In this document: positions 25,230 through 56,433 of the stretch, in pieces
Layout of the letters: each line of letters begins with the position of its first letter
How positions within the stretch are numbered: position 1 is the first letter of the stretch
Origin: Pseudovirgaria hyperparasitica
Taxonomy: Eukaryota
Reading direction: 5' to 3' (one strand)
Assembly: GCA_010093815.1 (NCBI GenBank)
Contig: ML996567.1
Length of the DNA: 64,000 nt
Translations under genes and position numbers: made by a program
Notes under the pieces: model-generated
Told to the model about the DNA's origin: nothing
The model's database searches: none
The model's input: only the letters and a program-made list of their open reading frames with translations

Positions 25230-25514
25230 ATAGAATATGATGTTGGGCGTGTGAGATGCCGCCACGTCCCGTATCTGCGCCCGATTCTCAATAGTCGTTT
25301 TGAGGCATTTGACGACGCGCTGATCTGTTTTGAGACTCGGGCATCGTCAACGATTTCGACGCGTCTGCGATGGATGGTGTGGTATATCAAGTAGACGTGC
25401 CCACCCTGCTTCCTGCCTTGCATCGTCGCGTTGGACTCGCATCACTCACTACACAACACAACACAACGCCATCGCAAGTTGCGATATCCGGAAAAAGAAA
25501 CAAAAAAGAAAATC

Positions 25515-26333
25515 ATGCTTCTCATCACACTCCTCTCCTCCAGCGCGCTCGCTCACGCCGCTGCCCTCGCATACCCAGCCGACCCACCACCACCACCATC
25601 CTCCACACCCACATCCACACCCTCCTCAATCTCATCCTCTCCCTCATCCTCACCCTCCTCCAAACCATCCTCCTCCTCCTCCTCCAAATCCACCCCCACC
25701 CCAAACCCCCAAAAACTCACGCACCCAACCCCCTACACCCCCTACGACACAAACACCTCCCCCCTCGACCCCCTCTGCACAAACCCAGACTCAAACACCA
25801 CAACCACCGCCTCCCCCCTCTGCCACACCCCCATCTGCGCCCTCTCCCCACTCAGCACACCCCGCCACGCCCCAACACACACCCACTGCGCCCTCGCCCT
25901 CGCCGGCATAGTACGCATCCCCGACGCCGTGAACGGCGAAGACGCATTCGCACGGCTAGACTACCTCAGCTGGGACACCGGAAACGGAAACGGAAACGGG
26001 GCAAACAGGACCTGCACGCCACAACTCGAAGCATATGGCGCGGACGCACGCAGCCGTGTGCCGTGGTGGCGGTTCAGTGCGTGTGGGGCGGGGGTGGATG
26101 TTGAGGGGGGTGCGGAGAGGGTGTATGTGCGTGGGGTGCGAGGGGGGCGTGTGGGGGGAGGGGTGACGGGGGATGTGAGGGTTGTGGTTGAGGAGGCGAG
26201 GGTGCGGAATTGCTGTTTGAATTTTGAGAGGGCTGTGGATGTGCCTGGGTGGCCGTTTTGTGGGTATGTGGATTATGCGTTTGAGGCGTGCTTGGATGAG
26301 GGGGAGGTGAGGGAGGGGATGAGGGTTGGGTGA
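25515..26333 (+). CDS. Putative secreted protein (272 aa) with Ser/Pro/Thr linker and 10 Cys; effector-like
   Basis: Signal-peptide-like MLLITLLSSSALAHAAALAYPA after an AAAATCATG start context. Ser/Pro-rich stalk, then a Cys-containing domain (RNCCLNF...PFCGY). Confidence 0.7.
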   Translation: MLLITLLSSSALAHAAALAYPADPPPPPSSTPTSTPSSISSSPSSSPSSKPSSSSSSKSTPTPNPQKLTHPTPYTPYDTNTSPLDPLCTNPDSNTTTTASPLCHTPICALSPLSTPRHAPTHTHCALALAGIVRIPDAVNGEDAFARLDYLSWDTGNGNGNGANRTCTPQLEAYGADARSRVPWWRFSACGAGVDVEGGAERVYVRGVRGGRVGGGVTGDVRVVVEEARVRNCCLNFERAVDVPGWPFCGYVDYAFEACLDEGEVREGMRVG

Positions 26334-26501
26334 ATCTTGGTTTTTTTTTTTTCTTCTTCTTCTAGGAAAAGGAGGGAGGGGAAGAGAGAGTCAGGGTGAA
26401 CGTTATTCACACTAAAGGGAGAATACCTCTAATTCTTTCAAAAAAAATTATATTCTCTTTAATGAATGTAGTATTAAGACTCTAGAAGATATTAGAGAAT
26501 C

Positions 26502-26639
26502 TATTAAGGATAGAGATGTCAAGTCTTAGTCAAGTATTAAATTAATTACTAGCTACTTCATAGAATCTACGGCTATCTATATCGGACCTTTAGTCCGTAG
26601 TTCTTACCGTTATTCGTCTCCTTATTACTTTCCGTAATA
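26502..26639 (-). repeat. 3' LTR of element A
   Basis: Near-identical to 47248..47385. Termini read TA..TA, the RIP product of TG..CA. Confidence 0.95.
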
Positions 26640-26999
26640 GCTACCTCTAATTAAATCGAAATAATAAATTAACTCGAAACGATAATATCTTCTATAACGA
26701 TACTAAAGTCCGTTACTCTAGTAGGCTTACTTTAATTAGATGCTTACGTAGATACTACGCGAGGTTACTTCCTAAGTATCGGTAGAAGTATTAATAGTAT
26801 TATTATAATATAGCTCTACGTTTCTCCGGTTCTTACGCGAAGATAGCTTCTATTACCTTTAGATTTATAGTAACTATCTAAAGCCTATTATAAACCTTAA
26901 GGAAAGCTTCGAATTAGTTATTAGGGTATTTAAATATATGATTTAGTACTATTCTTATTACTCTTATTTCTTTTATATTTATTTAATCCATTCGTAGTA

Positions 27000-29900
27000 T
27001 CGGTATAGCTATAGGGATCTAAGACCATTCGTACGTATTATCGTCTTTTCTTAGCTAATTTAAGTAAGTAGATTTAGCGGGAGTAGGAACTATAGGTATC
27101 GGAGTAATAACGGTTTCTATATTTATAGCCGCGGCGGCGCTTACGACGACGGTAGCGGCCGTAGTACTAGTAATAATGTTAATCTCTACGTTAGCTACGG
27201 CACTTATAATAACGTTAATATCTATATTAGTTACGGCATTAGTTTCTACTAGTAGCATAGTTTTAGTAGCGGCTTCTTCTATTTAGGAGTCTTCTATATT
27301 ATGGAATTCGTTTACTAACTCCGAGTTATTAGTATTCGCGAGCTTCGCGAATTACTACCTTTATTTCTTAAACTTATCCGAGACTACTTCTTTGTATATA
27401 ACTTCTATTAGATTATTATTTATATTAGTATCTAATTCTCTAACTTTAAGTAGCTTAATATCTAAGCTCGATCCCTTATCGTCTAAGAGCTTCTAGGCGT
27501 TTCGTTCTAGGAGTTCCTTAAACTAATACTCTAGCGTAGGAATTCTAGAAACTAGTATCTCTATCTAAATATTATCGAGTTTAGAATAGTAAATTATAAG
27601 TACTAGCGGCCGCTACTTTGTCGAAGAGCGTTTCGAAGGGTATTCTATTTCTATTAGAAGCTTTACGTAGTTTATCTTCTTTTATAGCGAGTAGGTACTC
27701 GAAGCTATCTTAAATATATTACTAGTACCTCCTAATGATTTCTTCGATATCTTATACGCCTACTTCTATAGTACGCTCTATGGTTTTCGTCACGCTATTA
27801 GGATATTATAGGTTTATAATTATCTCTATGAATCTTCGTATCTAGCCGGTAATTCTTAGTGTTTACCTAATTAATTCTTTCCTAGATAAAGTATCTACCG
27901 CGGGTGTAGTAGTTACCGCGGGCGTAGCTATTACTACGGGCGTAGCTATTTCTACTATTATAGCTATCTTCTATATAGCGATCTTTTATACTTCTACTAT
28001 AAACCTTTTTAGAGCCTCCCTTATAATATCTTTTATCTAAGCTTCTATCTCTTTCTCGTGGGCTAAGATAAGCGTGTTTATTTCCGCCTCTTATTAACTA
28101 ATAGCGTTTACGGTTAACGCGGCGGGAATTATAGTAGGTTAGATCGCGGGAATTAAGGTAGATCGTAGCTCCGTTAGCTCTATTAGGGTAGACGGAAGTT
28201 CTAACGACGTAGAAGCTACCTTAGATGCTATTATTTTAGTGGTAATCGACTTTACCTTCTTTACTATTTTAGCTTTCTTTACGGCGGTAGCTAGTATAGA
28301 TTTTATAATAGGGAGTAGAACCTTAATTACCTCTATTACCTTCGTGACTAGAGCCTGTATTTCTTCCGGTATCCTTAATTTAATAACGCCTTCGATTAGG
28401 TTTATCGGGACGTTTAAGGTAGATACTCCGGCCTTTGGTCCCTTAGCGATCTCTCTTACTAAAATGATTAGCCATACCTTATTAGTATTCGTGAATCCTT
28501 CGATTACGAAAAAGTTATCTATTTTATTAAAACTAGGTAGCGAGCTTATAGTAATAGTTTATATAGAGATAGTTTACGTAGAGGTTTTAGGCAGGGTTAA
28601 AGTATATCTACTAAGTAGGTGTCGTGGTAGGAGTTTATTAATTTTCCTACCCTATGTAATTCGATCTTCGCGGGAACCGTCTTAAATAATTATCGGTATA
28701 GTTACCTAGTCGTTCATAGTACCGTAATTTAAAGGATCTATAAACTATAGTATCTTTTTATAGGCTATGGCGAATTTCCGTGCGAGGTCTTTAAGAGAGA
28801 CTACTAAGATTAGCTATATACGCGCTATGTCTTCTATATATAGCGCGTGGACTTCTTTAAGTAGCTTTTCTTCTACTCCTTAACGCTAGTCTACTATTAC
28901 GCTCTCTATTAGGCCCTATTTTTAAACTAAGTCTTAGAGTATAACCTTATTTAATGGTATCTATAAGTGCACTTCACGGACGTTTTTTATAATTCTAGCC
29001 TTATCTTCTAGGGAACTTAGACGGTGGATTAACTAGAACTAGTATCCGGACGATTATAGTACTATTATATGGTTACCGTTAAGTCCTTTAAGGCGCTATA
29101 CGACGTGCTAGAATCTTATATATCTATAGAGAATGTATCGTTAGTATTCGTGTGCCACGAGCGTCGCTTCTTAATTATATTATAATTACTATATAATTAA
29201 GTCTAGAGGTCCTATTACCCATTCCTAGGCGATATCTCTTTACTACTAAGCTACGACGGTAACCTAAACTAATCCGTCCCTTCTTCGCCATGCGGCGTAG
29301 TACTAAATATTCTCGCTATTCAAACCTTATAGCTAAGATACTAGTATATTCCACGCGTGACTATAGTGGCTCCGGATTTCCTCTATGGTATCCATTACGA
29401 AGTATCATGCTAGAATCTACACATATTCTACTTAAGCTATTTCCTTTATAGAGTATCTATTACCTAGTTTTAAGAGCTACGCGATAATACTACTCTTAGA
29501 CGATTACTCTACCTCGAATCTCGTGCCTTTTAGGAGTATAACGGTGAAGTTCCATTCCTCGTCCACGGATATTATACTCTCCTCGAGTTCTTCGTTAGAA
29601 ACCGTAGCTAGAATCTTTATAAAGAATTCTTTTTACTTTAGAATGTATCTAATTTCGTCCATAGATACTAGAGCGAGTAAACCTAGGCGGAGGCGGTATG
29701 GATTTACTCCTAGGTCCGAAAATTCTAACTAATATTACCATATAACGACTGGTTCCTCCTCTTCTATTATGGGCGGCTTATATTTATAGTTAGAGTTAGA
29801 GATTATACTACCGTCGAGAATATTATAACGCATGGTACCGTGCCTCGTACTATACTTATCATGCGCCTTTTATTCGCCCTTCCTTATAATCTTAAGCTTA

Positions 29901-30895
29901 TTTTTTATCTTAATTATAATATAATATGGCACGGCGACATTTAGTAGTATGGTTAGACCTTTTAGATCCTACGTAACTCCCTTATCTTCCTTATATAGAA
30001 GGTTAATCCATCGAAGCTTATATAATACCATTTACGATATCTCTATGTTCGAACGATAAACCCCGTACTTTAGGAGAGAAGGGTCCTACTAGGTAGGATT
30101 CTTAATATTAGTATTAGTAAGAATCGGTCGCTCCTTATAGAGCACGTACTAACCGATAGTAAGATAGTAGAACTTTCTATTAACTATAACCGGCTTTCCT
30201 TTATTATCGTAGTATAAGTATCTATCTTTATAGGGAGGGTCTAGCTTTCGCGGTAGAATATAGAAATTATTACCTTCCTTTATTATAAAAGGCGATACTT
30301 TCTTTAAAGACTAAGTCTTCGATACTTAAAATAACGCTATAAATCTATTTATAATATCCTTCTAGTAAAAGATGTTATCGAGTTTCCTATAGAATATCAA
30401 TACCACGTAAATCTCGAGTTTATACTTATTAGAAAGGTAGATACCGTAAGTTAGCATCGTAAATCGGAGGCTCTTAACTATAATTCCTAAGGTAGAATAA
30501 TCATAGACTAGTTTTCGTTCGTTATATCTTCTATTAAAGCTTCCTTTTTATTCTACGTCGATTCTAATATACGCTTTATAGAATAGAAAGGTTTCTAATT
30601 ATATAGTTCCGATAATACCGCTTATTATTCCTTTTACGCGAGGGTGCTTTCTATATACCACTCGAGTTATAATAGGAACTATATTATATTTTAAGGCGGT
30701 AGGCTTCTTAATTAGTAACTTCTTACTCTTTATAGCCTTTCCTTTATTAATTTCGCTCGCTAAATAACCTCCGTTACCTTTATTTCCTTTTAGCTTTCAC
30801 TTATAACCTCTCTTAGTAACTGTTTTTAGCGGGGTTAAGGCGTTTTCCTTATCCGAGGTAACTTTAGCTTTATTATCTTTACTCTATACTATCTT
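27000..30895 (-). pseudogene. RIP-damaged extra long coding region (ORF3) of element A, function unknown
   Basis: The segments translated by hand across ~30895-27870 all fall in one frame with mostly TAA/TAG stops (RIP of CAA/CAG/TGG). A frame switch near 27800 continues into the 27055..27258 ORF. An in-frame 18-bp repeat lies at 27896..27949 (ATPVV/ATPAV/TTPAV). Confidence 0.65.
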
Positions 30896-31859
30896 TATAT
30901 ACTATAGATATAAGAGTAAGGAGGAATTAATAACTGTTTAAGATTATAGATAAAACTTATTAAGCTAGAGTCTCTGCGAGGTTAAGGTAGAGGATAGAAA
31001 GATAAGTTACGCGTTAAGTTAAGGATGAGTAAGTAGAAGGTAAATCGAGCTTAGCGGTAAGAGTATTCGCAAGCGTGACGTTACTATTACTACCTTCCTT
31101 TAATAGTAGGGTAAATTCTCCTTTTACTAAGATTATATCTACTAGTACTAGATTTACGTCGTTAAGAGGACTAATAGTAGTAAGTATAGCGATAATATTC
31201 TTAACTACTAAATAGTATTATATTCATTATCGTCGTCGTATATAGTAATATATTCCTACTAACGGATACTAAACGGTAGTCTATAGCATATACTTAATAG
31301 CCGATCGAGATATACATAGTAAGTAGGGCATTCTCGGATCCTAGTATTAATCTATATAGATATAGTACTATAAGATTACTCCTTCATCGTCCTTACGGAA
31401 TTCGTATTATAATATATTAAGAATTCGTTTAAGCTCGTGGGTATATGGTAATAATTAATGTTACTATGTTTTTATTCACGGATTCTATTCCTCTTAGACC
31501 GTTATACTATTTCGCTTACTATTACTATGAATGTTTAGGGAACATAATTATAGGAATAGTTATATACATAGGCGTAGTTTCGGTGAAGTGTGTTTTTTAG
31601 GTTAGGGACGTATCTAATATTAGATATAATACTTTAATGCTATTATACGTTTAACATTAGATACAATTCTTTTATTAATATAATTCTTTTATTACACGGT
31701 AGTACTTCTAAAGGGTAAACGCGAAAAGGAACGTATATATATAATTAATAATAATTCGGAATTATATCCATCTTAGGTAGGAACCTTTCGGTTTCTAACC
31801 TAAGCTAGAATTTCAACGCTATGCAAGAAACGCCTCTTAGTACTCAAGGCTATAAATTC

Positions 31860-34800
31860 CTTTTATCTAGGTCCTCTTTTATAGTTTCTTATCTCCGTTT
31901 TTAAGGTTAGATATATTATATTAAATTCCTCTCGAAGTTTGCGGGTATCTCTAAGGTCTTCTTTATTATACTATTAGTTATAAATTAGACCCTAGCCCTT
32001 CCATTTAACTAGGTACTATTTCTTCTTTATATTCTAATTCTAGTATCGGTCGAGAAACCTTTTAATTTCATAAGACGGATATTTATCTAGATCGTCTTCG
32101 GCGAAAACGCTAGGTAGTTCGTTAGTACCCTAGTTACGTCCGAATGGATCCGTGCCGGGCGGGTATAGTACTAGCTAGCTAACTAATACTACTAGGTGGA
32201 TTTTCACGCTCTCCGGAAGGTCGAGTTCGTACGTATTATTCCTAATATATTATAAAATTTTAAACGGACCGGTTCTCTAAATATCGAACTTTCTATTTAC
32301 GTGCCCGTGTACGCGGTAACCGTAGTATAATCGTAGATATACTTCGGCTCCGGGTTTTAGACGAAGAGGCTTATGCTTCTTATTATATCGGTACTTTATT
32401 ATAACCGCTACAAAGCTAGTAGCTTCGGCGGCTATTTCTCTATTCTTTAAACGGAGCGATTCATAATCTTTAGAAGGTAATTCATGTAGTACGTCCGCGC
32501 TATCTTTAACTTTAAAACCGTATAATTACTCGTTTAGAGATATACTAGTGGTTTCATTCGTAGCGTTATTCATGAAGCCTTATAGAAATGGTAAGTAGGT
32601 ATCCTAATCTTCGTCGGGATTCTTGGTAACTACGAAACGAATTCTAATCTCTACGGATTAGTTTATTCTCTCTACCTAGCCGTCTATTTATAGACGATAT
32701 ACGGCGGACATTAGAAATTTAACTCCTAGCATGCTAAAGACCTTTTACTAGAAGGCTGAAAGCCATCTTATATCCCTATCTAAAATGATTTTAGCCGGAA
32801 TTCCCTAATCGTGTTTAACGAGGTTTGGTAGAATTAGACTAGCCTATTCTTTAGCGCCCTAGTTAGTATATCCTAGAACGAGTAGTACTCGTTTAGTAGC
32901 TTTATAGGTAATAGGCGCTAGAGCGTCGTAACCGGTTACTATTTTAGGTAGGGCGGTAATAAGATCGAGGTATATGGTTCTAAATAGTACGTGCTAAGTT
33001 ACGATGGGAGTAAAACTCCTATATAGCTATTACCAAGAGGTCCTCGCCTTATTACATTACTTATAATATTTAATATAGGCCTTGACTTCTTTCGAAAGAT
33101 ATCGTACGTAGAAAGATATAGACACTCTCTTATAGAGTCTATTCTCGCCTTAATAGAAACTATGATCGTGAAGTACGTTAAAGATCTCGCTAAGAAGGGC
33201 ATGGGGAATACATAGCCTCTTACGATCGTTGCCACGATCGATATTATAAATCATACCGTCTTTTATAAAGAATTTTAGTCTATTTAGGGGTTATAATTTC
33301 CCTTTTAGTAGTAATTTCCCTTTAGAGAAGTTAACGTATATTAGTACGTTCTCGTCTCTATGTCGTAGAGTATCTTCCTTAATTAGTACTTCGCGTACTT
33401 TATTCCATGCCTTATCGTCTTTATAGACTTTTCGTAGACGATCCTTAAATTCATCTACCATTTTAATTAAGACTACGTGATAGACGTAGGTAAGTTTAGT
33501 AATTATCCCTTTATCGCTACCGATCGTAAAAGTCTATATAATCTTATCTAGTATATTACCTTCTACGGCTGGCGCCGTACTTATAAGCCTACTAAGAGCG
33601 TCTAGCATAATATAGTTCCTACTAGGGCAGTATCGGATATCGAGCTTATATTATAAGAGATATTAAGCTACTCGGATAAGACGGATATTCTTATAGTCGG
33701 CGGCTATGCTAGAGAGCTTCGTCTAATATATAATAGCCGTTATTATAGCATGGTCCGTGAATATAATAAACTATACTAATGATTTAACGAAGTGTTAAAG
33801 TTTAGTTACTAACTAAACTAGACCAGCCATTTTAAGTTCTATGGGCTAATAGTTTCGTTTAGTTACCGTGATAGCTTTACTAAGAAATAATATTAGTTAT
33901 ATTACTTCCTTTAGAAATAATTCTACCTAACGTAGCCATAACATTCTTAGGGGGTCGAGTAGATTGAGATTAGTCTCGTCGGGATCGATAGGATCGTTAA
34001 CCGGAACTAATAATATTACTAGATCTAGGTCCCCGTAAACGTGGTACATAAAGACTCTAAAGCCATACTCTTTTAAAGCGTCGACGTCTAGAAACGTACG
34101 TCTTGCCGGCTTATAGTAATAATAGAAGATCGGGTCATCCTATAGTCCTTATATAGCTTAAAATGATTTAATAAGTGCTTTAGTCTATAGAACTAGCCTT
34201 TTCGAGGCCTATACTTTTTACTAAGTCTTTTTACGAGAGGCATAGCGGAAGAGCTTAGTACTAGCTTTTAGTAACGGTAAGACTAACTATATATAGTATA
34301 GTAACTATCCTCATAGATATCCCGCCATTCCTAGATATCGTTTAAGCGCTATAGTATCTTTTAGGAACTATATTTCTTTTAGAGCTATAATTCTTTCTAC
34401 CTTTAAAGACAGTCCGAAGGCGTTAACTCTTTTTCCAAGGATTATAGTACTTAGATACCCGATAAACGTCTTGGTTACAGCGAGAGATATATTAAAGTTT
34501 AATAGTATACTCTATAGTTACCGTAAATAATGAATATACTCTTCGAATATCTTAGAGAAAACTACTATATCGTCTATATAGGCTTTTACCCATAGGAACT
34601 CTCGTAGAAGATTATCGAGTTCCCGCTACACGTGCTAGACTAAATTAACGTAGCCCATGGTAAGAACTTTCAGGTATTCTTAACCCCTATAGGTGTTTAC
34701 CGTAAATTACTCACGATTTTCTTCTCGTACTAACCATTAGTAGAATATACTTATAGCATCTATTATTATAATATAGTAGTAATCTCGGCTAGCCTAGAGC

Positions 34801-36548
34801 ATGTTATGTATTCTTATTAACGGGTAGGAATCTTTAACGGTAATTATATTAAGGCCTCTAATATTAATCACTACGCGTGGTTTCTATATCAGCCCATTTA
34901 TCTTTAGATTATAGACCTCTCTCTAGACGATAAAAACTAGGGAGCCGAATTAGATAGGCTTTTTACTCTAATCCATTTTGTCGTTATCGTAAAGCCCGTT
35001 AAAGGTTTTATTAATTACTTTACGGTCCCGAGGGCCGACGTTATATACTCTAGTATATAACTTCTTAAGTTCGCGCTAGTCCTCTATAAGGATAAGCTTT
35101 ACTTCCCTAGAGTTTACGATGGATTTTTTATCTTGCTATAACTCTATAAACTCTTTAATAAGTTCTTTATATTTTATAGCCTTCTCTTCCCTACTATAGA
35201 GTATTATTCCGTTTAGGAGACGAGTCTTAAGCTTAGAGTTAATATTCGCGGCTTCTAAGGGAGGAAGGGTAGCGAGGTCTACGTTAGTATCGGAGATTTA
35301 GTAGTATTCTATAATGTCTAGTTCGCGGATTTTACCGAGTACTATATTCCTTAGAATTATGAGTGTCTCGTTTCCGTCGTTCTTAATTATGATTCCTCTA
35401 CTACTAGAGTCGATAACTACCGTATACATTACGGCTTATCGCTTCCTAGTAGCGGAGAGGTACTCTTTCGTAGGTTTAAAAAGCATATCGCGATTATTTA
35501 GGAGGTTACGTATGTCTATAAGAACCACGCCTCTTAAATTAGGCTTAATAGATACTAAGTACTATGCTCTTACTATAACATTTAACTACTTCTTATATCT
35601 TAGGCGGACGCTTATAGGAGCTACCGTATTTTAGCCGTACGGAAAGGTAATCGTACGGTTTTAAACTTTAATGTCCATTTCTTCTAGACTAATGGTATCT
35701 ATACCTATTAGTAGTTTTAGTACTAGGTTTTTAATAATACGTGCTTCGCATTTAATAGTAACCGCGATATTAGTTCCTTCTACGGTAGTAGGTACCGTAA
35801 GTATTATTTTAACGGACTCGTTACTATTATAAACCTTATTACCAATACCCATAACTACTATTAGATGCATGAGTTTCGTGATATGCTTTTTATAATCTAG
35901 TAGGACTATGGCTAGCTAGTTTCTATCTACGAGACTTAGCTTTACTCCGGTATCTACGATTATTTATTTAGACTCTATGGTCCCGTTTAATATTACGTTT
36001 ATTATAATATAGTTCTAATAACGAAAGCGGTGGCCTTTCGTTCCTATCCTTTTTACGGTACTCTTAATAACTCGTGGTACTAGTAGAGGCGACGGAAACT
36101 CGTCTACCATGTATATATAATCCACTAGCTTCTTCGGATGCTTTTCCGTAATATACTAATATAGCTTATTATTAGAAGGATACTTTTATCCATAGACGCG
36201 ATAGTTCCTTGCTATAGTCCTTTTACTCTTCTACGGTTTCTTAAGCGATAGTACCGGTAGAGTCTTAACTTCCTTAGTTCTTACGAAGAAAACTCTAGCT
36301 AACTTCTTATAAGGTTCCTCGTCCGACTAGCTTTCTTTAGCTTACTCTTAAGCTTATCTACCCTAATCTTCGTCCGGCGAGTCTTCTTTATTTTATAATC
36401 CTTCTTAATTAAGAAACTCTACTAGAATGGTATTATAATAGGCGCGTTACGGCTTTATATAAGGTTGCCTCTCGACTTATATAGAAGTCGTCGTGGTCTT
36501 TTTAAAACTCTTTAGCTAATACTTACTATTCCCTTTATATAGGCGACG
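31860..36548 (-). pseudogene. Element A gag C-terminus and pol (protease, RT, RNase H, integrase, chromodomain)
   Basis: IVDTGVKLSLVD (~35950), KAYIDDIVVFS (~34575), FLDVDALKEYGF (~34080), DG*VERIN* (~32670), GPFKI...YELDLP...IH (~32240) and YLVKWKG (~32010). Confidence 0.92.
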
Positions 36549-36829
36549 GTCTCTATTAGGACGGGAACTATAATAGACCTATATAGACCATTCTAATCCA
36601 TGCAGCCACGTAGTGGCCAGAGCTAGGTTAAGTTAGCTAAGTTAAGCGAGGTTACTATATAAGTAGACCGTATAAACCAATTCCTACTCATTAGGAATCA
36701 ACCTTATATAAGAGTAAGATTACTCTATAAATACATTCCTATATCTCTCTATAAACTATTAGACTACTATCCCACGTCTTTACTCTTTATATTTTAATTC
36801 CTCTCTATATAGTACGACGGTAGCTTATA

Positions 36830-39800
36830 GAGATAGCTTCTACTACACGCTATAATACCCGTGGCACTACCTTACACGAGAGACTCTCTCTAAATCTAAA
36901 CGAAGAGAATAGTCTCCCTATAACCACCTCTACTAATAAGTATACTCTATAGGCTATCATACTAATAACTAGTATGGCATTCCGTATAACTATAGAAGAT
37001 TACCTAGATAATAAGGAAGGAGTCTATTATACTCCATCGCGGTCTAGTTTATACTATACTAGATCTATCCTTACTATAAGACTAGACTCTATTAACGTTA
37101 ATGAATTAATTTATTAGAACCGACTAACGTTAACCACGCCTTATAATAATATATATACTAAGCTACACGCGGAGAGGTAGTATTAGGCTTAGCTTAAGTA
37201 GTAACTTTGCGAACTCGACGAAGCGTAAGGACGAACCGCTAGACTCGAAGCCGTACTACGCGCTTTAGTACTAGTAGTAACTAATCTATACTAATATAGA
37301 CTAACTTAAGCTAAAATATTCTAACTAAGTCTATTACTATCCTAGTTACCTCGGCCTAAGAAACTATCTTACTTTAACGGTAAAACCAGGAGGAGCTTTT
37401 ACGAATAGGCTTACTAGTATAGCCGATTCTTCTACCTATTTATGAATAATAGTAATAAGATTAGATTCGTATAGAACTACCTAGACCTAACGCTATCTAA
37501 ACGTTAGATAGTATATCGAATTAAATACCCTAAGGATGCGTATAACTAGGACACGTTCACCGAATTCCTTCTTTAATACTTCGGCAATAGAGCCGAGCGA
37601 CGCGAATAGGCTTAGAGCTATATCTTTAAGACTTAATAGCGAGAGAGATAATCCCCGTTATAACTCCTTAAATACCTCCGACCTCTTTAGAGAGAAGCTA
37701 AGGAAGATCGCATGGTTCGATAATGCGACGACTTTAAAAGGTCCCTTAATCTAAGCGTAAAGGAACGTATCGACCTTATAACGTCTATCTCTACTAACCT
37801 TTAGATACTCGCGAATCTCGTAGAATAATATTAGCGTATAATAAATAACTAACGTCGTATAGGCGTATAACTATCCCTATTAATCTAATCTAATATAAAA
37901 TCATCTAAAGAGGACCGGTTTAGTAATAGATCGCGCGGAATACCTTATGGGCGCTACTACTCTACGAACTCGAGAAGATAAGGCCCGTACCACGGATCTT
38001 TCTACTAGTTAATATATTAAGACGCGAGAAACGACTTATATAAACGATCTAAAGTCACCTACTATATCTATAGTAGGATAGGCCATATAGTACCCGAGTG
38101 CCGCTTAGGGAAACCACCGAATACTAATATAGATACTAAGTTAGTTATATACTATAAGTGCTAGTAGCTAGGACACATCGCGCCTAACTACCCGGTATAC
38201 GATATAAAAAACTAACTATCTATAAGGAACCCTCGCGACTTATAGACATAACTAAAATAGAGGAATAACTAGCTAACTAGTATATCGAACTATAGGCTAG
38301 GCCTATTAAGGTCCCTCGTGGATAATATTAGACCGTAATACTTAATAGCGGTTTAGCTACTAACGTTATATCGACTTAACGAGTACGAGAACTTAACGTC
38401 AACATTTAAGTACTAATAGATACTACCTTCTATGGTATCGACGGTTCTATTAAATCGTAGGGTATCTATACTATTAAATACGGTATCTAGGATAGCGGGG
38501 GGAAGTAGAAACTCTACTACTTAACCTTTATTATAGTAGATAGTCCCTTCGACATAATCCTCGGTATACCGTAGCTTAAAAAATATAACCCGAAACTAGA
38601 CTTCATCTAGAAAACAGCTGGCTAGCGTATATACCTACTATAATAGAACCTAGTATAGCTAGTTAACGATAAATAATTCTAGAAGGACTACGAAAAGGTA
38701 ATCTCCGCTATCTATATCCTCTTACTTACTTAAAATAGAGAGCTTAGTATTAAAGTAGACGAAAACCTACTATATTAGTATAAAATATACTAATATATCG
38801 CGTTAGCGATTAACTCGTCCGAATTACCTTAATACTAATCTACTAACCTTACTATTAACCTTAAAGACGGTTAATAACCCCTATACGGACCCATCTACCC
38901 TCTATTAGAACCCGAGCTATAGGTCCTCCGAGAATACATTAAAAAGAACCTTATATAAGGATAGATTAGGCCTAGTATATCCCTAGCCGGAGCTCTAATC
39001 CTCTTTATAAAGAAGAAGGATAGGAGTCTCCGTCTATATATTAACTACTATAGCCTAAATAATATTATACGAAAGAATCGTTACCTACTACCTCTTATCT
39101 CTAAGTCTATTAATAGACTAGGGCGCGTGAAGATCTTTACTAAGCTCGATCTATATAACGCCTACTACCGCCTACGTATTAAGAAGGGCGATAAGTAGAA
39201 AACGGCGTTTAGGACCCGTTATAGACACTTCGAGTATATAGTAGTCCCTTTTAGACTAACTAACGCGCTAGGAACCTTCTAAGCGTATATTAATAACGTG
39301 CTAGTAGGTCTACTCGACATGACGTGTATTATATACCTTAATAATATTCTTATCTTCTCTAATAATAAAGAAGAACACATCTAGCACGTATACGTAGTCC
39401 TAGATAGGCTAGAAAAACATAAGCTATATATCAAGCTATCTAAATACGAGTTCCACTAGAACTATATTAACTTTCTTAGCTTCATTATTACTAATTAAGG
39501 TATAACCATAGAAAGGGATAGGGTTACTACTATTATGGACTAGCCTAAACTAAAATCGGTTTAAGATATACGTGTCTTTATCGGATTCGCTAATTACTAC
39601 CGAAAATTCGTTAAGTATTTCTCCCGGCTAGTAGCACCGCTTAACGCGCGTACTACTACTATAGATTCGTCTATTACGGTCCGCGGTAGATAGAAATAGC
39701 GTAATATTAAATCATAGCCTATAGAATTATTAGAAGGCGAAAGGGCCTCCTTCGAGAAAATCAAAGAGGCATTTATAACTACTCTATTACTAGTATACTT

Positions 39801-41950
39801 TAACCCGACTAAACCTATCTATATTAAAACCAACGCGTTAGGATTTATAATCTTAGATATTCTCTTCTAGCCTAGACTAACTAAGTCTAAAAAGGTCTAA
39901 TAGTATCTAGTTACGTTCTTCTCACGTAAAATAGTCGATATTAAGACTAGATATACTATCTATAACTAAGAGCTACTAGTAATAGTAGAGTCGTTTAAAT
40001 AGTAGCGATATTATCTTAAAGGTACTATATATAACGTTAAGTTACTAACTAATTACTATAACTTAAAGGGGTTTATAAGTATAACGGTTTTAAACCGTTA
40101 ATAGGTCTAATAGGCTAAGTAGCTTACGAACTTTTACTTTATAATCTACTATTAATCTAGAAGTATAAACCTAGCTAATAGAATATTAAGAAGACCTAAC
40201 TATAAAGAAGGCGCCTAGGATTATAGTAGCTATAGGGTCCTAGAGTAGCTATAGGCCTAACTCTTAAGGACGAGGTTGGATTTTAAGTTATTAGGCGATT
40301 AGTAAGATACTAATATTAATACTAGTAATCGAATCTCTAAGACCGAAGCTAGTAACTAAAGACGCGATACCGAAGTCCCTAGTAGGCCGTTTATTAGCGC
40401 TATCGGGAAGGGCGATAATACCTAGCGTAAATATCTAATTAACCTTACCTAGTTAATCGTGGATCTATAGAAGATAGACCCGATAGTTTTAAAGTTACGT
40501 AAAATATAGTAAGATAGGTTATTACGGACTAAAGTAGACTATAAGTAGACCTTTATAGACGGCTTACTTTACTATAATAGAAAGTACTATATACTAATAG
40601 GTAATACGCGATTTAATATAGTTAGCCGATACTATAACGCTAACCTAGTAGGACACTTTAGGTATATACGTACCCTAAGCTTAATTTATTAGTACTATTT
40701 TTAGGAAGATATACCTAAGTACGTTAAAGAATAGATAGCTACTTATCTAATTTATTAAAGAACGAAGGCCCCTAGGCATAAGCTATATAGGAATTTATAG
40801 CCTCTTTTAGCCCCCCTCTTTATATAGAAAGACGTTACTATAGACTTTATAGTTAACTTACCTCTAAGCGAGATACTTAGGATAAGTTATAATTCTATTC
40901 TTATTATTATAGATAGACTTATAAAGATATCTAGGTATATCCTAGTATAGAAGACGATTACATCTAAAGAACTAGCGTAGGTATTCTAGAACGAGATTAT
41001 TAAGGTCTATAGTATACTAAAAAGGATCGTTACGGACCGAGGAAGTACCTTTATATCTAAATTCTAGATATTATTCTACGAAATAGTAAGTATAAATAGG
41101 AATATATCTATAGTATTTTATCCTTAGACGGATAGCTAGATAGAGCGATAGAACTAGACGCTCGAGGCCTACCTACGTGTATTCTATAATTTTAAGTAGG
41201 ATAACTAGGCCTCCCTACTAAGTATAGTAGAGTTCGTATATAATAATAGTTATTATAGTATAATAGATATTATACCTTTCTAGGCGAACCTCGGATATAG
41301 TCTAAGGATAGGTTTTAAGCCTTAGACGGTCTAATTTAATCGAATAATAGACGTGAACGTCCACGCTTAGGAATTAGCGATTAAAATCTTTAAAACCGTA
41401 CGTAACTATCGCGCTATAATCTAATAAGTAAACGACTCGTATATAAAGTACTATAATAGGTTAGCTAAGAATTAGATGTACGAGGAGGGCGATAAGATTC
41501 TTCTTAATATCTATAATATATAAACGTTATAAGTAAATAAGAAGCTCGATTATAAAATGGCTGGTCCCTTCCGAATCAAACGTTATATTAGTATAAGAGC
41601 CTACGAGCTCGACTTAGGAAGCGATATAAGAATCTATAATATATTCTACGTCTTACTACTCGAAAGATTTCGATCTAACGTGTATGGCCGTACGAACGTG
41701 TAGTTATACTCTATTATACCCTAAGATAGACTAGACGTGTTCGAAGTGGACTATATTATTAAATATAGAATTAATAAAGATAGTATTTAGAAATATAGAA
41801 TCCGTTAGAAGGACTATACTAAGGACGAGGATACCTAGGAACCAGTGGTATATATCTTAAGTTCTATAATAACTACGTATAAGTAAAAGATATAGAATAG
41901 CGTATTATTAATATAAGTATAGCGATGTCGCGGTCATCGTAAAAAGAAAA
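36830..41950 (+). pseudogene. Element B gag-pol, RIP-inactivated
   Basis: FDIILGIP*L (protease), SLAGALILFIKKKDRSLRLYINY, KTAFRTRY, YLNN at 39334 (YLDN in copy 2, consensus YLDD), TNALGF (RNase H), TD RGS and TDS*IER*N*TLE (integrase), AGPFRI, and chromodomain YRIR*K...DT*EP. Confidence 0.93.
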
Positions 41951-42499
41951 AGGATACCATAAAGAATAAAGTACTAAACTAGGAAATCTAGACGCGCACT
42001 AGGAAAACTCTATATAGTAGCCCTATAATTCAAGTATTATATGGTTACTAGACGCGAAGAAAGCGTAAATAACCATTTTAGAAACGCGACGCGATATACT
42101 ATAATAGAATAATATAGAAGAGTCTAGAATGGACTAATATAGACTATTATATATAAGAAAAACATAGGACTAAGAACCTAAAAAAAGGTACCCTACCATA
42201 GAATTAAACTCTTAATATAAAATATAAAAGGTTAGAGTATCTAAACCGATAACTACTAGACTACTAGTTCGGGTACTCTAATAGAATTTATAGAGATAAA
42301 CTAATTTATATATGGTGCCTATACTTAGATAACTTAAGGAAAATTAGAATATAGAAACCGATAGTTATAAGCTAAGCGAGCGCATATATAATATTATTAA
42401 GTTAAGAATTAAATTACTAGAAACTAGCCGACGGGTATCTAAACGGTCTAAAAAGGACTAAAACGGATAAAAGCTAGGTAAATAGAGCCGGCGCGCACT

Positions 42500-43880
42500 A
42501 TCTATAGTAGATCTAGAATATATAGAGCTAGGCATAGAGCTAATATATAGAGCTAGAACTATAGAGCTACTTCTCTATCTTATTATCTATTCTAACCTCT
42601 AGTATAGTCCTCTCTAACCGTACGATATAGTAGTAGAGGATAACGACCTTAGCCTCTAGAGTAATAACCTAATCTATTAGAGTCTAGAGGGAAGAGCCTT
42701 AAGCGCCGGAGTGTAGCGACTAGGTCTAAAGTTAGCTAATATAATCTAGAATAATCTAGAAGGGAATATATACCCTCTTATAAGGCGACTTAGAGGGAGA
42801 AATAGTAGACCTCTTATAAGATCTATTAGTAGCGCGAGACGGACGAGGGGGGATAGAGTAAATCCTCTCTACGGCCTCTATAGCTAGGATAGACTCTCTA
42901 GAATAGGTAGCCTAGGCGCTAGGGATCTCGCGGCGGCTAGAAAAATTAACGGGTATTAAAAATAATTAACGTACTTATAACTTATACTTTAATAACCTCT
43001 AGAAAGAGCTTATAGCGCTCCCTAAACTCCCTCTATATAGTAGATAGACGGCTATAAGGACCCCTAAGGGTCTCGCGGACGCGAAGGTCGTTATATATAT
43101 CTTATATATATATAGGAACCTAAGAATGTATTAGCGCGGACCACTTTAGATTATACTAGATTAAGATAGCCTATTATACTTACCTATAGATAAGTCTTAC
43201 TAGTTATAGTATAGCGGCGGTAGCGGGTAGATAGAGTAAAGATAGGGCGTATAGGCCCGTCGCGGTTAGTAGAGTAGTAGCTAATACTAGAGTTAGAGCG
43301 AAAGAGATATTTAGAGCCGGCCGTATAGCCCTTAATATACTTATAGTATATTAAACCGTAGTTTACCGTTTTCCTATGGCGTAAACCGCGACTATATTTA
43401 GTATCCTTAGTGACCTAGGCCTTATTATTAGTAGGCTAGGGTTTAGAGTAAATATTAAGGTTCTAAAAGAATCTAGAGCGACTAAATCGGTCTATATTAG
43501 ACCGGAAGGAAGAGCGGCGAGGCGGCGGCGTGGGTAAGCGCGAGGGCTCGCGATTATTATCTATAACGAGATCTTCTTTATCCTCTAGAGGAGGTAGAGT
43601 AGATAGCGTACGCTTTAGAGTAAGAGGAGAACCTACGACTACTTTATCTATAAGTTTAATACTAGAATTACCTAGATTAGAGCGACTAGTAGCTATATTA
43701 GTAGTAGAGGTAGTAGTAGTAGTAGCTCTAGCTACTCTCTTCTCCGACTTAGAGCGCGCCTTTATACTACCGCGATAGGTAGGCTTCTTAGCCGGCGTGG
43801 CCGGGGAGGAGGCGATATCTTTAGAGCGAGTCTTATGAGAGAAGGAGGTAGGCTTAGAGATAGAACTAGTATTAGATATC
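42500..43880 (-). pseudogene. Antisense intron-containing cargo gene of element B (copy 1)
   Basis: Reverse complement of 57151..~58500. Intron 43120..43183 reads GTAAGT...GCTAAT...TAG. Confidence 0.65.
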
Positions 43881-44603
43881 TATATATATATATATTAGCT
43901 AGAGATCTAAGGAAGGAATATTTATCTACCCTTAACGGCGATTAATAAAGCTAAATTAGTAACCGTAATAACGCGAATAGGTTATATAGGACCGGTTCTA
44001 ATAAGAATAGACTACTATAGACCCTTCTAAACCTAAACTAGGGAAGATAGTATATGAATTAATAACTTACCTTAAGAGCGAGGTGGATATACTAGAGAAT
44101 AAAATTAAAGGCGAGCGAAGCTAAATATATGCTTAACTAAAGTAGCGATCACGTGTTCTAGGTAGTAGCTATAAAGTAAGGGATAAGCGCGTATATAAAC
44201 TAATAAAAGTAAACTAGAATCTCGAGTTTATCTATATTAAGGATAGTTATAACGTTATAGGAACTTAGTTACGGATATATAGATACACGATAGATTATAG
44301 AGACTTAGAATTATATATACTTAAGTACTTTAGGGCGAAGCATAGAAAGAAGAAGAATATTATTAGGACGGGAACTATAACGGACCTATATAGACTATTC
44401 TAATCTATATAGCCACGTAGTAGCTAGAGCTAGGTTAAGTTAGCTAAGTTAAGCGAGGTTACTATATAAGTGGACCGCATAAACCGATTCCTACTTATTA
44501 GGAATTAACCTTATATAAGAGTAAGATTACTCTATAAATACATTCCTATGTCTCTCTATAAACTGTTAGACTACTATCCCACGTCTTTACTCTTTATAGT
44601 CTC

Positions 44604-46200
44604 TACCTTAATACTAGTTTTAACCGCGGTCTTTACTAGACCTTTACTCGTTTATCTAAGAAGATACGACTTAGATTACTTTCTCGCTTTCTTTTATTAT
44701 CTGAAACTTGTTAGGGCGGTCCTCTCGTCCGCCGCTACTACTATATCGCGTCCCGCGGTTCCCTCGAAAGTAGTCGTTTCCGACTTCTTTTTCTTTACGA
44801 GGATAGCGGTTCGACGGATACTAGCCTTATAACGCTTTACTAGAATAGGAATAGTCGAACTTACTCTACTTATAGAGTTCACGCTAGGTCTATAACTTCT
44901 ATTCGAGCTATTTATAAAAGGTATCTAGATTAGTATTAGATCCGGGTTCCTCTATGCTCACCCTAAATCTTAGATCGAGCTTATTCTAGGCCTATACCAT
45001 AATAAGTGCTTTAGATTTTAAATTTACCTCTTTATAAGCCCTAAGTACTTTCATAATATAGTTAGTTATACTCTAGCCTCCATGTAAGTTCTCGGGGCCA
45101 TATAATATACCTTAGAGTCTCTTTAAGGCGGCACTTAGAGGTATAGAGAATCTCTTTTTAAGTTTCTTAACCTAGCGCTTAAGTCTATCTCCGCTAGTAA
45201 GACTTAACTTTATAGCGTTACTTAATTAAGAGCTATACCAAATTTACACCGTGCCTCTAAGATACTTATAGAGATTGTAACGAATGATTTTCGTAGGGTA
45301 TATCTACTAATAGTTCCTTATTACGTTAATAAACGGCTGAACGGATCTATAATAGACCTTTCTATTCTTATTATAAACATCTTCCGTTCTCGAAGGATCT
45401 ATACTCGGATCGAAGAATCTAATATCCTCCGTCCTAAACTTCGTGTCTCTTAGATTTAAGCTATTATTATCTTTATAGTCTCTAGTTTCCGTAGTTCGCC
45501 GGCGACGATACGGGGGCATATATAATCTATAACGGTAACCCTAAGCTCTATCGTCGTCTCCCTATAGATTATTATCCGAGCCTTCGCTTAGATTATTATC
45601 GTTCCTTAAAACTCTTACTATAGACTAAGCTTACCTATAGTAGTCATTTCTAGACGGACGGTCTCTAGAAAGTTCTTCTTTATTTCTTCCCTAAGGCCTT
45701 TCCTAAGAGGGCGCGACTTAGCTAGCTCTACTTTATTCTACTAGCGGATTTACCCTCTTACGATTATTAAGTACCGCTGAAACTATTATCGTAATTTACG
45801 CGATCATTTCTACGCTTAGTATATTAGGCTAGGCTTACTAAGCCATAATAGAAACTAGAATTAGAGCCGGGATTAGAGGCTCGAGGCTTTAAGGCGTTCC
45901 GACTTACTCTCCGCTTCTCTCTATGCCTTAGCTCGAGCTTCCTCTCTAATAAGGATTCTCTAGTACTATAATCGCCTTATAAGGATTAGAGATTATCGTC
46001 TCGTAAGAATTAGAGTTCTCTAGTCTTACGGGTTTATCGTAAAACTCGAAGTCTTATAGTCTTACGGGCCTTTTCTTTAGCGTAGTAGGAACTTTAATTA
46101 ATAATAGAGGGGACGAGGAAGGTAAATTTACTTCTCTTAGCTATACGAAGTTTCTAAAGTTACTAAAATATTTAGATTAACGGAAATTTACCGCTAGCCT
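44604..46200 (-). pseudogene. Element A gag N-terminal portion
   Basis: Minus-strand coding remnants including KFRTEDIRFFDP (IGFFDP-type motif seen in fungal Gypsy gag). Rejoins 36548 once element B and one TSD copy are removed. The upstream boundary is uncertain. Confidence 0.7.
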
Positions 46201-47247
46201 TTTAACCTTTATAGCTTCGGTAGTCGCTAGACGTATTCCGTAATCCTTATTTATAAGATAGTTCTAGTTAGAAGGATATCTATCTTCCTAAGGCTATTTA
46301 CCCCTAGACCGTAAACGATTTCGATTTCTTAAGACTTCTAGGTATACGTAGGTAATACCTCGAAGTAAGATAAGGGTATAGGGGTTTAATTTATGTAGTA
46401 GGCTATCTTTAAAGTAATAAATAAGTTAATAAGCTATTTTAATAACTTACTCTAATAGCTTAGGAATCGGTTCCTTCTATAATACTAGTAATAGAGCTAG
46501 TATATCTTATATATTCCTAAGTATACCGAGAATATCAGCCGCGAGAGGCGCGGACGTAAGCTTCTCTAGTATACTTAGATAATTAGGAATGTTTAGTAGG
46601 AACCTACTCTAACCTTAGTAGCTCGCGGAAACTAAGGCTTCGCGTACTAATCGTCTTGTCTAATTAGTACTAACCTATTCCTATAAAGTAGAGTTCGACT
46701 AGCACTAAGTATAACCGGTCGTAGTATAGTATTATATTCCTTACTTAACGGGAACTAGGGAATCGTAGGGAGCTCGATCCTTTTAATGCACGACTCGTTT
46801 AGGAATACTAGTACTTATACTACGTTCCTATAATACTCTGGAATAAGTCTTACGGAAATTAGTGTGGTTAGAATAAGGTAAGGCCTTTAAAGCGGATACT
46901 TATTCCTATTTTCCTCTAGTGGCAAATCCTTTATTTACCGTTCCCGTGGCTCCTTCCTTAGGACTCCTTTTATAATTTAATACTCTTATAAGTCTTAATA
47001 ATAGTAACGGTGACGAACGTTACCTAGTGCCTAGTATTCTCTTATCCTTACCGATTATCTTACCGTTTTTATGAACTTCTTTTACTAAATTTTACGGAAG
47101 CGTCTTTTATTTACTAAGTCGGGATATTAACGTCTTTTGATTCGGCTTTGGAGAACTAGTACGTTAGGGCGTTAGTGTCTTATATTCGACTAGTACTATC
47201 TTTCTTTCGAAAATGATTAGCTAGTAGTATGCTTTTAGCTACTAAGA

Positions 47248-47385
47248 TATTAAGGATAGAGATGTTAAGTCTTAGTCAAGTATTAAATTAATTGCTAGCT
47301 ACTTTATAGAATCTACGGCTATCTATATCGGACCTTTAGTCCGTAGTTCTTACCGTTATTCGTCTCCTTGTTACTTTCCGTAATA
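47248..47385 (-). repeat. 5' LTR of element A
   Basis: 138-bp copy of 26502..26639, followed by TSD GAATC. Confidence 0.95.
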
Positions 47386-47759
47386 GAATCTTATATAATT
47401 TTATTTATATCTTACTATAAGAATATTTATTAAGTTTTTCTAAAAGACTAAAGAATCTTAAAGAGATAGATAATAGAGAAAATCTCTATTTTCTCTTCTT
47501 CTCTTCTGAATATACCTTAGTACCTTAGTAGTTACCTTTTTTATATATGCTACAGAGCTTTTCTTAGAATTACTAATTAATCTTTTCTTTTCTTTTTCTT
47601 AATTTTATCACATAGAAAGTAAGAGACTATATAGAAGTATATTTAGATATAATTAGAAAACTTTCTAGAGTCCTAGTTCTAGAGTTATTAGAGAAAATAT
47701 AAGTTTTTAAGAATTAAGAGAAAATGTATATGTTGCCATTCCTGACATGTCCCTCCCTA

Positions 47760-54684: not shown

Positions 54685-55032
54685 GCTGAGTCTCGTCTGA
54701 GTCTTGTCCCACAGTGAAGAGGATCTGTCGCCTAGGAAACGTTTGTTTCCAAATGAAGGGGCGGTCGCCGGGCTGCGTTTTGGGTGTTGCCTGCTCGTTT
54801 CGAATTGCCTAAATTGGCCTCAGCCGCATTCGAACAGCGATATCCAGACATGGGTTTCTGCAAGGCAAGCAATAGCAAGAGTACAATTGTCTTGAATTAC
54901 CAAGATAAGCGACCTAGTTAGGCTTCGGCTTATAATTAAACTAATAAAATTACCTTGGATTAGGAAGAATTACCGATTACGTTATAGTATATATATTAAA
55001 CGAAAAGTAGGGCTAAATATAATCGATAGCAC

Positions 55033-55118
55033 CACGTGCTTAAATCTCGTGCTCTATCACGTGATTATCACGTGACGGCTACACATTATCCTCTTGGGTT
55101 ACGTGATTATCACGTAAC
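55033..55118. promoter_or_regulatory. Cluster of CACGTG E-box/palindromic motifs
   Basis: CACGTG at 55033, 55058 and 55069, RIP-like variants TACGTG/CACGTA at 55100/55111, and a further copy at 55303. Function unproven. Confidence 0.4.
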
Positions 55119-55653
55119 TTAGCTAACTATCTAGATTACCTAGTTAGGGGGCCCGCTTACGATTAGTAAGCGGCTAAAACTCCTTATTAGCTATATATAA
55201 AAGATCTATTACCCTTTCTTTTTTAAGTCTACTTCGTATAACGAAACAATAATATAATCCCCTTCTTCCCATCGCTTGTCTTATCTTACATTTATTCTAC
55301 ATCACGTGCCTTTCTTATGATTCTTGATTTTGCGGTATATCTACAGCTTTCATTTTTATGTTGTTATCCTTGTTTTTAATCACATGTATATATATACACA
55401 TGTCCTAGCGATGCAATCCTTGTATTAGGTGCAAGTAAATTATAGCTGTATCGTGTATCATATAAAAAGGGCCGTAAGGATCTCGGATGTTCGAGTTAAG
55501 AGGAAGGTAGACGACGCGACGTGCGAACCTGTTTTTTGTTTTGTCTTGAATTGTACTTCTTTCTAACGTCTAGTTCCTAACATCCCCTTTCTAACGACGA
55601 CCCCTTATTAAGATTCTCTTTCTAACATCCCCCAATCCAATTGGCAATAATAC

Positions 55654-55930
55654 CTATCTAATATCCCCTATCTAGCATCCCTAATCTAATAACACCTATC
55701 TAATATCCCTCATCTAATATCCCCTACCAACGTCCCCTATCCAATATCCCCTATCTAATATTCTCTATCTAATATCCCCTATCCAACGTTCCCTATCTAA
55801 CGTCCCCTATCTAACGTCCCCTATCTAATATTCTCTATCTAACGTCCCCTATCTAACGTCCTCTATCTAACGTCCCCTATCTAACGTCCCCCATCTAGTA
55901 TTCTATCCTTATCTAACAACCCCTATCTAC
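55654..55930. repeat. 14-bp minisatellite, consensus CTATCTAACGTCCC, roughly 18-20 copies
   Basis: Direct inspection. Variants CCAAC/CTAAC and CG/TA are RIP-like. Degenerate units extend left to ~55560. Confidence 0.9.
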
Positions 55931-56433
55931 CCTTCCCCTAAATAGACGCGTAAGCAAGAGAGTAAGAGAAAGAAAACCATGTTAGTTAGAATTTACACCC
56001 CTATAACCAGCTACGTAGACCCCGCGCGCCCCTAACCGCGGTACTCCGAACGACTCTAGCAAGTAACAGGCCAAATAAGAAACTCTCACCGATCAGGATG
56101 ATTAGAATGATTAGTTGTAGTAAAACGGCCCCCGTTACACCTAGACGTGAGCATATACAATCCGAATCTATGTAATCTCAATCTAGGCCAAAATTTTAAT
56201 AGAGAATACAAGCTTAATCTACGACTTAAAATGATTGCTAAGACAGTATAATCTTAATCTAATTAGCTAGATTAATTATATTAGATTAAATATATAGGTC
56301 CTAGATAGCGGATATTTAATAAGCTAACGGATATATAACATAAGGCTCTATATATAGCTAAACTAGTTAATTTTAGTAGGGTTCTAGTAGTAAGTTTCTT
56401 AATATACCTAACTCTATACTATAAGGGAGTTTA

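Follow-up and report, generated by a model that had tools for sequence, protein, structure and literature searches.

The 64,000-nt stretch of Pseudovirgaria hyperparasitica DNA analysed in this work (contig ML996567.1 of assembly GCA_010093815.1; hereafter the window) contains element A, a Ty3/Gypsy chromovirus degraded by repeat-induced point mutation (RIP), in which a sense-strand coding remnant of about 1,380 codons, here called ORF3, lies between the chromodomain of pol and the 3' long terminal repeat (LTR). The 5.2-kb region that holds this open reading frame (ORF) is probably an integral part of a multi-copy chromovirus family, composed of a spacer, a family-specific sense accessory gene and a short tail, with a gene product other than a membrane envelope protein. 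In this genome ORF3 is dead. The original prediction, made from the sequence alone, had described a long sense-strand coding remnant in this position; codon models, stop patterns and amino acid composition bear it out, and the three peptides on which it had drawn (KPPIIEEEEPVVIW, TVSNEELEESIISVDEEWNFTV and YSHAWNILVS) indeed fall in one minus-strand frame.

The coding character of ORF3 is apparent from codon usage. A codon log-odds model trained on the pol of element A, comparing the sense frame with the other five in 180-nt bins, ranks the ORF3 sense frame highest in 19 of 23 bins between 30939 and 26800, a plus-strand frame leading in one bin and no frame in the remaining three. Minus phase 2 leads over 30939-27520 and minus phase 1 over 27519-26800; the pol signal itself stops near 31840, and between 31840 and 30940 no frame stands out with the codon model. 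A second model, trained only on the pol of the nested element B and applied in 300-nt bins, agrees on strand and frame in 13 of 14 bins, and as a control the models recover A's gag and B's pol, where these lay outside the training data, on the right strand and in the right frame. The predicted long frame with a switch therefore stands, but its extent requires correction: the coding part extends over about 30940 to 26800, the adjoining spacer (31840-30940) carries no signal, and the switch lies at about 27591.

Stop codons support the same interpretation. They account for 69 of the 1139 codons of the first part of ORF3 (ORF3a, 6.1%) and 13 of the 240 codons of the last (ORF3b, 5.4%), compared with 84 of 1556 in the pol of A (5.4%) and 44 of 566 in gag (7.8%); TAA or TAG makes up 80 of the 82 stops in ORF3, and Gln stands at about 0.1% in ORF3a, ORF3b, pol and gag alike. 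RIP makes stops of CAA, CAG and TGG codons, so that this pattern points to a formerly open frame in which such codons have been converted. Were the region instead a long non-coding 3' sequence with a chance frame bias, the lack of a homologue and of a confident fold would be accounted for; however, 200 dinucleotide shuffles of ORF3a all stay above the lowest stop count of the real frames, the frame holds over 4.1 kb, and a 1-nt indel in other copies restores a single frame, which leaves the absence of a gene barely credible. In the spacer at 30940-31840, 176 of 200 shuffles match the stop count.

Stop counts alone leave the strand open, and it is composition and the codon models that assign ORF3 to the minus strand. 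The ORF3a sense frame contains 24.0% charged residues (Asp, Glu, Lys and Arg) and 11.4% Ser+Thr, against 25.6% and 9.7% in the sense frame of pol. A plus-strand gene, antisense relative to the element and comparable to brtn in Boty, would be favoured by the smaller number of stops in the partner frame (59 vs 69 for ORF3a and 10 vs 13 for ORF3b) and by a 180-aa open plus-strand stretch at 28143-28685. Nevertheless, the plus frames score negative in nearly all bins under both codon models, no plus-strand product matches Pfam above the cut-off (the only sub-threshold match being DUF3087, E 0.048), and the product opposite ORF3a, with 12.9% charged residues and 20.7% Ser+Thr, has the composition of an antisense partner of pol (13.7% and 21.9%), leaving a plus-strand gene only a very slight chance.

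Other evidence ties ORF3 to the element family and not to this copy alone. The RIP index lies between 1.0 and 1.66 in all 11 of the 500-nt bins of the extra region, similar to the 1.08-1.65 of pol, and falls below zero within 500 nt outside element A. RIP acts on duplicated DNA and, because the centre of the 5-kb block is 2.6 kb away from both pol and LTR, the block must itself have been repeated. Two runs from a single sample (X1 and X2) supplied contigs that were placed on 25500-36600 at a likeness of at least 80%, and whose summed depth gives no copy number. Within these limits, 1891 X1 and 1200 X2 contigs were placed, over half of them less than 99% alike and many at 80-95%, and their coverage reaches all bins of the extra region, as it does in pol. 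Transitions make up nearly all of the differences: in X1, each of A>G, C>T, G>A and T>C occurs at 232-345 places, and every transversion at 20 or fewer. Two further runs with the same species label from another sample (X3 and X4) cover only the GC-rich flank to about 26333, and the part they leave uncovered proves nothing.

The frame switch is explained by these contigs as well. Three X1 contigs and one X2 contig lack the base at 27591, and dropping it shifts phase 1 below this point to phase 2, which joins ORF3a and ORF3b into one frame of about 1,380 codons; the switch is thus an indel private to this copy. The 6-aa tandem repeat of the original prediction is present as an 18-nt unit in 3.1 copies, detected at 27896-27950, and it differs between copies by indels and by a 52-nt skip at 27899-27952. 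Among 12 of the 31 indels, 11 fall within the 0.4 kb around this repeat (27590-27970) and one in pol, and this part of ORF3 seems indel-prone.

Moreover, the extra region is carried by other, diverged copies in the sample without termini of its own. Among the 23 loose contig ends shown of 222, boundaries occur at 26502, where four contigs each in X1 and X2 continue into other flanks and so mark other insertion sites, and at 36554/36556, the LTR of element B; among the same 23, the only end inside the extra region is a 9-letter one at 31218. The nine contig joints listed skip 52-700 nt, and none skips the whole region. No direct-repeat pair of LTR size was found inside it, and in the search for terminal inverted repeats (TIRs) the best inverted repeat, 32 nt at 81% (27372-27403 and 31558-31589), lacks a flanking duplication and is reached by 4 of 40 shuffles. 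The original prediction had allowed that other copies might lack the region or that it might be a nested transposon with its own termini; instead, diverged contigs extend across all of its bins, and no termini were found.

These observations bear directly on a rival origin, in which a foreign transposon, its type unknown, would have entered a progenitor copy in the sense direction, shed its termini and afterwards multiplied along with A. Such an origin would suit a large block set apart from pol by a non-coding spacer, an ORF3 unlike the gag-pol of the family, and a locus in which nesting does occur, as element B demonstrates. Against it stand the lack of termini or of a target-site duplication (TSD), the lack of any transposase, reverse transcriptase (RT) or helicase match in Pfam or among 1.84 billion representative proteins, although the equally RIPed pol does match, the pol-like codon usage and six-frame pattern, and the occurrence of an ORF in the same position in distant relatives; we regard this origin as unlikely.

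Homology searches with ORF3 were uniformly negative, as the original prediction had anticipated in recognising no domain. The three sense frames of the extra region match no Pfam family at E <= 1, the best match among PDB sequences has an E-value of 0.72, phmmer with 1200 ORF3 residues returns no match at E <= 0.001 among the 1.84 billion representatives, and a word-indexed search covering proteins of 780-2484 aa returns none. Furthermore, ORF3 shows no similarity to the gag-pol of its own family (hhalign 0.1%), none elsewhere in the window, and no likeness in sequence or profile to known env families in Pfam, PDB or the representatives. The pol translation, RIPed to the same degree, still reaches E = 8.7e-204, and RIP at this level therefore leaves conserved families detectable; such searches would very likely have picked up any long interspersed nuclear element (LINE), DNA transposase, helicase or conserved host gene in ORF3.

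A host gene transduced by read-through or template switching would fit the sense orientation beside the 3' LTR, which is also that of transduced genes as described in PMC7264820. However, no homologue occurs in any proteome searched, no non-RIPed parent copy is present within the window, and the region resides in many diverged copies, where PMC7264820 places transduced genes in one or few; transduction is accordingly highly unlikely. Of the two terms originally offered, 'accessory or captured', the first fits ORF3 better and the second appears unlikely, because ORF3 has no homologue outside the element among the 1.84 billion representatives and the region is multi-copy.

Some of the protein features read from ORF3 call for caution. 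RIP changes Glu to Lys, Ala to Val or Thr, and Thr to Ile, which makes both 'Lys-rich' and 'hydrophobic' unsafe as readings of the translation. The predicted Lys-rich N-terminus is present as such (24 Lys+Arg vs 4 Asp+Glu in the first 100 residues), but it is unsafe for this reason. That the original prediction recognised no signal peptide or transmembrane env signature agrees with what was found: two 19-mers of marginal hydrophobicity (Kyte-Doolittle 1.88 and 1.98), each with charged residues, and nothing that reliably indicates a signal peptide or membrane anchor, although this is a weak test, since RIP distorts composition. Together with the env searches, these features suggest that ORF3 is not a membrane envelope protein. 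AlphaFold2 models of two ORF3 pieces, built from the single sequence with X at stops, have a mean predicted local distance difference test (pLDDT) score of 30.3 and 43.6 and are unusable for a fold search; the second piece is mostly helical, and the coiled-coil-like stretch noted earlier is matched by a helical stretch, but only in a low-confidence model.

Additional information comes from two metagenome contigs, L001 and L002, related to the pol match P0014. The two are collinear over gag, pol and about 2.5 kb after pol, in the order gag, pol, spacer and ORF3. Their post-pol ORFs, of about 770-850 codons with 10-20 TAA/TAG stops, are 30-43% identical to each other on the sense strand and in one frame, while the RT-integrase block keeps 66.7% identity over 889 residues. 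They contain short, strongly conserved motifs (such as KAFPP, NHQTPS and KYQAVRT stretches) and a Cys/His pattern, the motifs being separated by acidic and Lys/Arg-rich low-complexity runs. The ORF of L001 has no homologues among proteins of 468-1491 aa, no Pfam match and no PDB relative. The post-pol ORFs of both contigs resemble that of A in the order gag-pol-spacer-ORF, the sense orientation, the lack of a Pfam domain and the low-complexity charged stretches, and differ from it in being shorter and in having no detectable sequence similarity to it. In addition, the polyproteins of A's relatives stop 40-180 residues past the chromodomain, and ORF3 is for this reason not an extension of Pol. 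A search for further relatives gave none among viral contigs and, among genome contigs, only a 28% relative and a 50-residue match.

Several points weigh against an integral, sense-strand accessory gene and need to be set beside the evidence above. Within ORF3, the signal is weak and stops are frequent in the codons at about 29500-29140, the start codon cannot be placed, and the plus-strand partner of ORF3a, which shares its third codon positions, has the lower stop count given above. The X1 and X2 contigs are short, so that the presence of the whole region in every copy is not provable from them. Neither L001 nor L002 includes both LTRs, and the placement of their ORF3 inside the element rests on collinearity. 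The comparison of their ORF3 with that of A gives an hhalign probability of 0.2% and a best tblastx E-value of 0.26; since divergence is fast and the pol of A is only 31-36% identical to that of the L001/L002 group, this lack of likeness says nothing for or against common descent. Finally, ORF3 has no homologue, domain or usable structure, and its function can only be inferred.

The coordinates of element A and its parts are collected in Table 1. The LTR pair is a direct repeat (26502-26640 and 47248-47386) with 97% identity over 139 nt, it is flanked on both sides by GAATC, and without element B the element measures about 12.8 kb; the original statement that the region lies inside matched LTRs and TSD is therefore correct. 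Apart from the LTR pair, self-comparison of the window found no match for element A. The order of domains in one minus-strand frame of 31800-36551 is RVT_1 (residues 557-698, E 3.7e-05), RT_RNaseH (885-968, E 8.2e-08), Integrase_H2C2 (1115-1171, E 5.6e-07) and SH3_Tf2-1 (1404-1461, E 1.5e-07). The RIPed pol translation, with X at stops, matches 61 proteins, the best of them at 36% identity, and the gag-pol of A, at about 2,400 codons, falls within the 2,000-2,500 aa of its relatives; Pfam gives no match for the gag and 5' internal region. No chromodomain is found by Pfam on the RIPed sequence, and its assignment comes from the C-termini of relatives: the stretch just beyond this translation (residues 1-95 of its frame) aligns to these C-terminal ends in 25 of 26 BLAST rows (best E 1.5e-05), and most of the relatives so matched carry PF00385 in precomputed Pfam annotation. 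Because the pol domains are in order and the corresponding C-termini of relatives bear chromodomains, element A is a Ty3/Gypsy chromovirus that reads in sense on the minus strand, possessing paired LTRs with a TSD, the RT-RNase H-integrase order and a C-terminal chromodomain.

Table 1. Coordinates of element A, its parts and the nested element B in the window, and of the post-pol ORFs on the two metagenome contigs.
Feature	Position	Strand	Remarks
Element A	26502-47385	minus	Ty3/Gypsy chromovirus, RIP-degraded, element B nested inside
TSD GAATC, left copy	26497-26501		read from flanks
3' LTR of A	26502-26639	minus	138 nt; repeat match runs one base further (26640)
Non-coding tail	26640-26799	minus	no coding signal; purine-rich run like a polypurine tract adjoins 3' LTR
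ORF3b	26800-27519	minus	last ~240 codons; codon log-odds +4.9 to +11.2 in 4/4 bins
ORF3a	27521-30937	minus	first ~1139 codons, one frame, 69 RIP-type stops
Extra base causing frame switch	27591	minus	copy-specific; omitted in contigs of other copies
18-nt tandem repeat	27896-27955	minus	in frame (6-aa unit), period 18, 3.1 copies, 86% matches
Spacer between pol and ORF3	30940-31840	minus	~0.9 kb, no frame above +3.8
pol of A	31882-36551	minus	RT, RNase H, integrase, SH3-like, chromodomain; one frame
Element B	36554-44598	plus	nested Gypsy, other family than A; TSD GTCTC
gag and 5' internal region of A	44599-47247	minus	codon model: phase 1 positive 44500-46300
5' LTR of A	47248-47385	minus	138 nt, bounded by flank reading
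TSD GAATC, right copy	47386-47390		read from flanks
ORF3 of L001	7672-10227	sense	
ORF3 of L002	6782-9109	sense	

At the 3' end of the element, one X2 contig has 36 G/C-rich letters in place of the 70 nt beside the LTR (26642-26713), and its G-run on the element's sense strand may represent the polypurine tract of a copy with fewer mutations. At the outer edges, a 58-nt inverted repeat (26430-26487 and 47663-47716; 78% identity, E 4e-06) lies in the AT-rich flanks of A, and its outer ends come to lie about 400 bp apart once the element is taken out; the landing site may be a small TIR-bounded sequence resembling a miniature inverted-repeat transposable element (MITE).

The wider window alternates between GC-rich blocks (about 47-65% GC) and AT-rich blocks (31-41% GC), the latter at 26.4-47.7 kb and 55-64 kb. 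In the AT-rich blocks the RIP signature is strong, with TpA/ApT at 1.6-1.9 vs 0.64 in the GC blocks and (CpA+TpG)/(ApC+GpT) at 0.15-0.28 vs 1.2. The second RIPed block (55000-64000; GC 0.36, RIP index 1.49) has no protein-level similarity to the pol of element A and must hold other repeat families. At 25334-26333, in very GC-rich DNA adjoining the RIPed block, two overlapping open frames of 256 and 312 codons are rich in Pro, Ser, Thr and His and represent low-complexity sequence. Element B, with 238-nt LTRs that are 94% identical, belongs to a family unrelated to A, their sole common match being a 40-residue stretch. The original prediction had both Gypsy families carrying cargo at the same position, which holds only in part: about 2.4 kb lie between the end of its pol and its 3' LTR (41900-44360), but the model trained on B's own pol finds no consistent coding frame there. 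This interval also contains, at 43463-43879, a 138-aa stretch that is open on the opposite strand.

Retrotransposons with an additional ORF in the interval from pol to the 3' LTR are already on record, and in this respect ORF3 is not, as had been proposed, undescribed in kind. In PMC7264820, many plant Gypsy families are reported to have such ORFs in sense or antisense; those present in most copies are distinguished from transduced genes in one or few copies, and their functions are described as largely unknown. ORF3 shares with the plant aORF-3S or env-like genes of Athila and Bagy2, described in the same paper, the position, the orientation, the occurrence in many copies and the lack of similarity to cellular genes, and differs from them in its fungal host, its chromovirus setting, its length of about 1,380 codons and the lack of a convincing transmembrane segment or signal peptide. 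The fungal Gypsy element Boty of Botrytis cinerea, cited there, likewise has a further gene, brtn, located after pol and ahead of its 3' LTR; unlike ORF3, which is on the sense strand, brtn is antisense. A survey of fungal Gypsy elements (PMC2864245) gives maximum lengths above 13 kb and depicts, for some of the elements, an 'add. ORF' whose function is unknown; element A, at about 13 kb and with an extra ORF, can be likened to these by description only. ORF3 thus belongs to a known kind, the sense additional ORF located after pol and ahead of the 3' LTR, and is set apart by its great length, its location in a fungal chromovirus and its lack of an env signature.

Read as an integral part of the chromovirus family, the 5.2-kb region would comprise a non-coding spacer of about 0.9 kb, ORF3 with its roughly 1,380 codons, and a tail with a polypurine tract. 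ORF3 would have been open before RIP made stops of Gln and Trp codons, and one extra base would additionally have split it into two frames in this copy. The spacer suggests that ORF3 was a separate product of a putative spliced or internally started RNA, as opposed to a fusion with Pol. Its product may have been a family-specific accessory protein of the additional-ORF type, acting intracellularly in the cycle of the element itself, for instance as a binder of its RNA, its particle or a host factor.

From the standpoint of the host genome, nothing sets this locus apart: it is a dead repeat within an AT-rich isochore. The extra genes that LTR retrotransposons carry are, however, poorly understood and in fungi barely catalogued, and ORF3 joins a short list; furthermore, it illustrates that a copy wrecked by RIP can be read as coding by comparison with the element's own pol. 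A different ORF at the same place in two distant relatives is a hint that the lineage keeps an accessory gene. It is possible, though doubtful at present, that a clade of fungal chromoviruses with a long gag-pol (2,000-2,500 aa) carries an old, fast-evolving post-pol accessory gene, and the fading homology of ORF3 within the clade, at 30-43% identity where pol keeps 67%, forms part of this tentative reading. If it were true, such genes would parallel, in fungi, the accessory genes of retroviruses and might be engaged in a conflict with host silencing.

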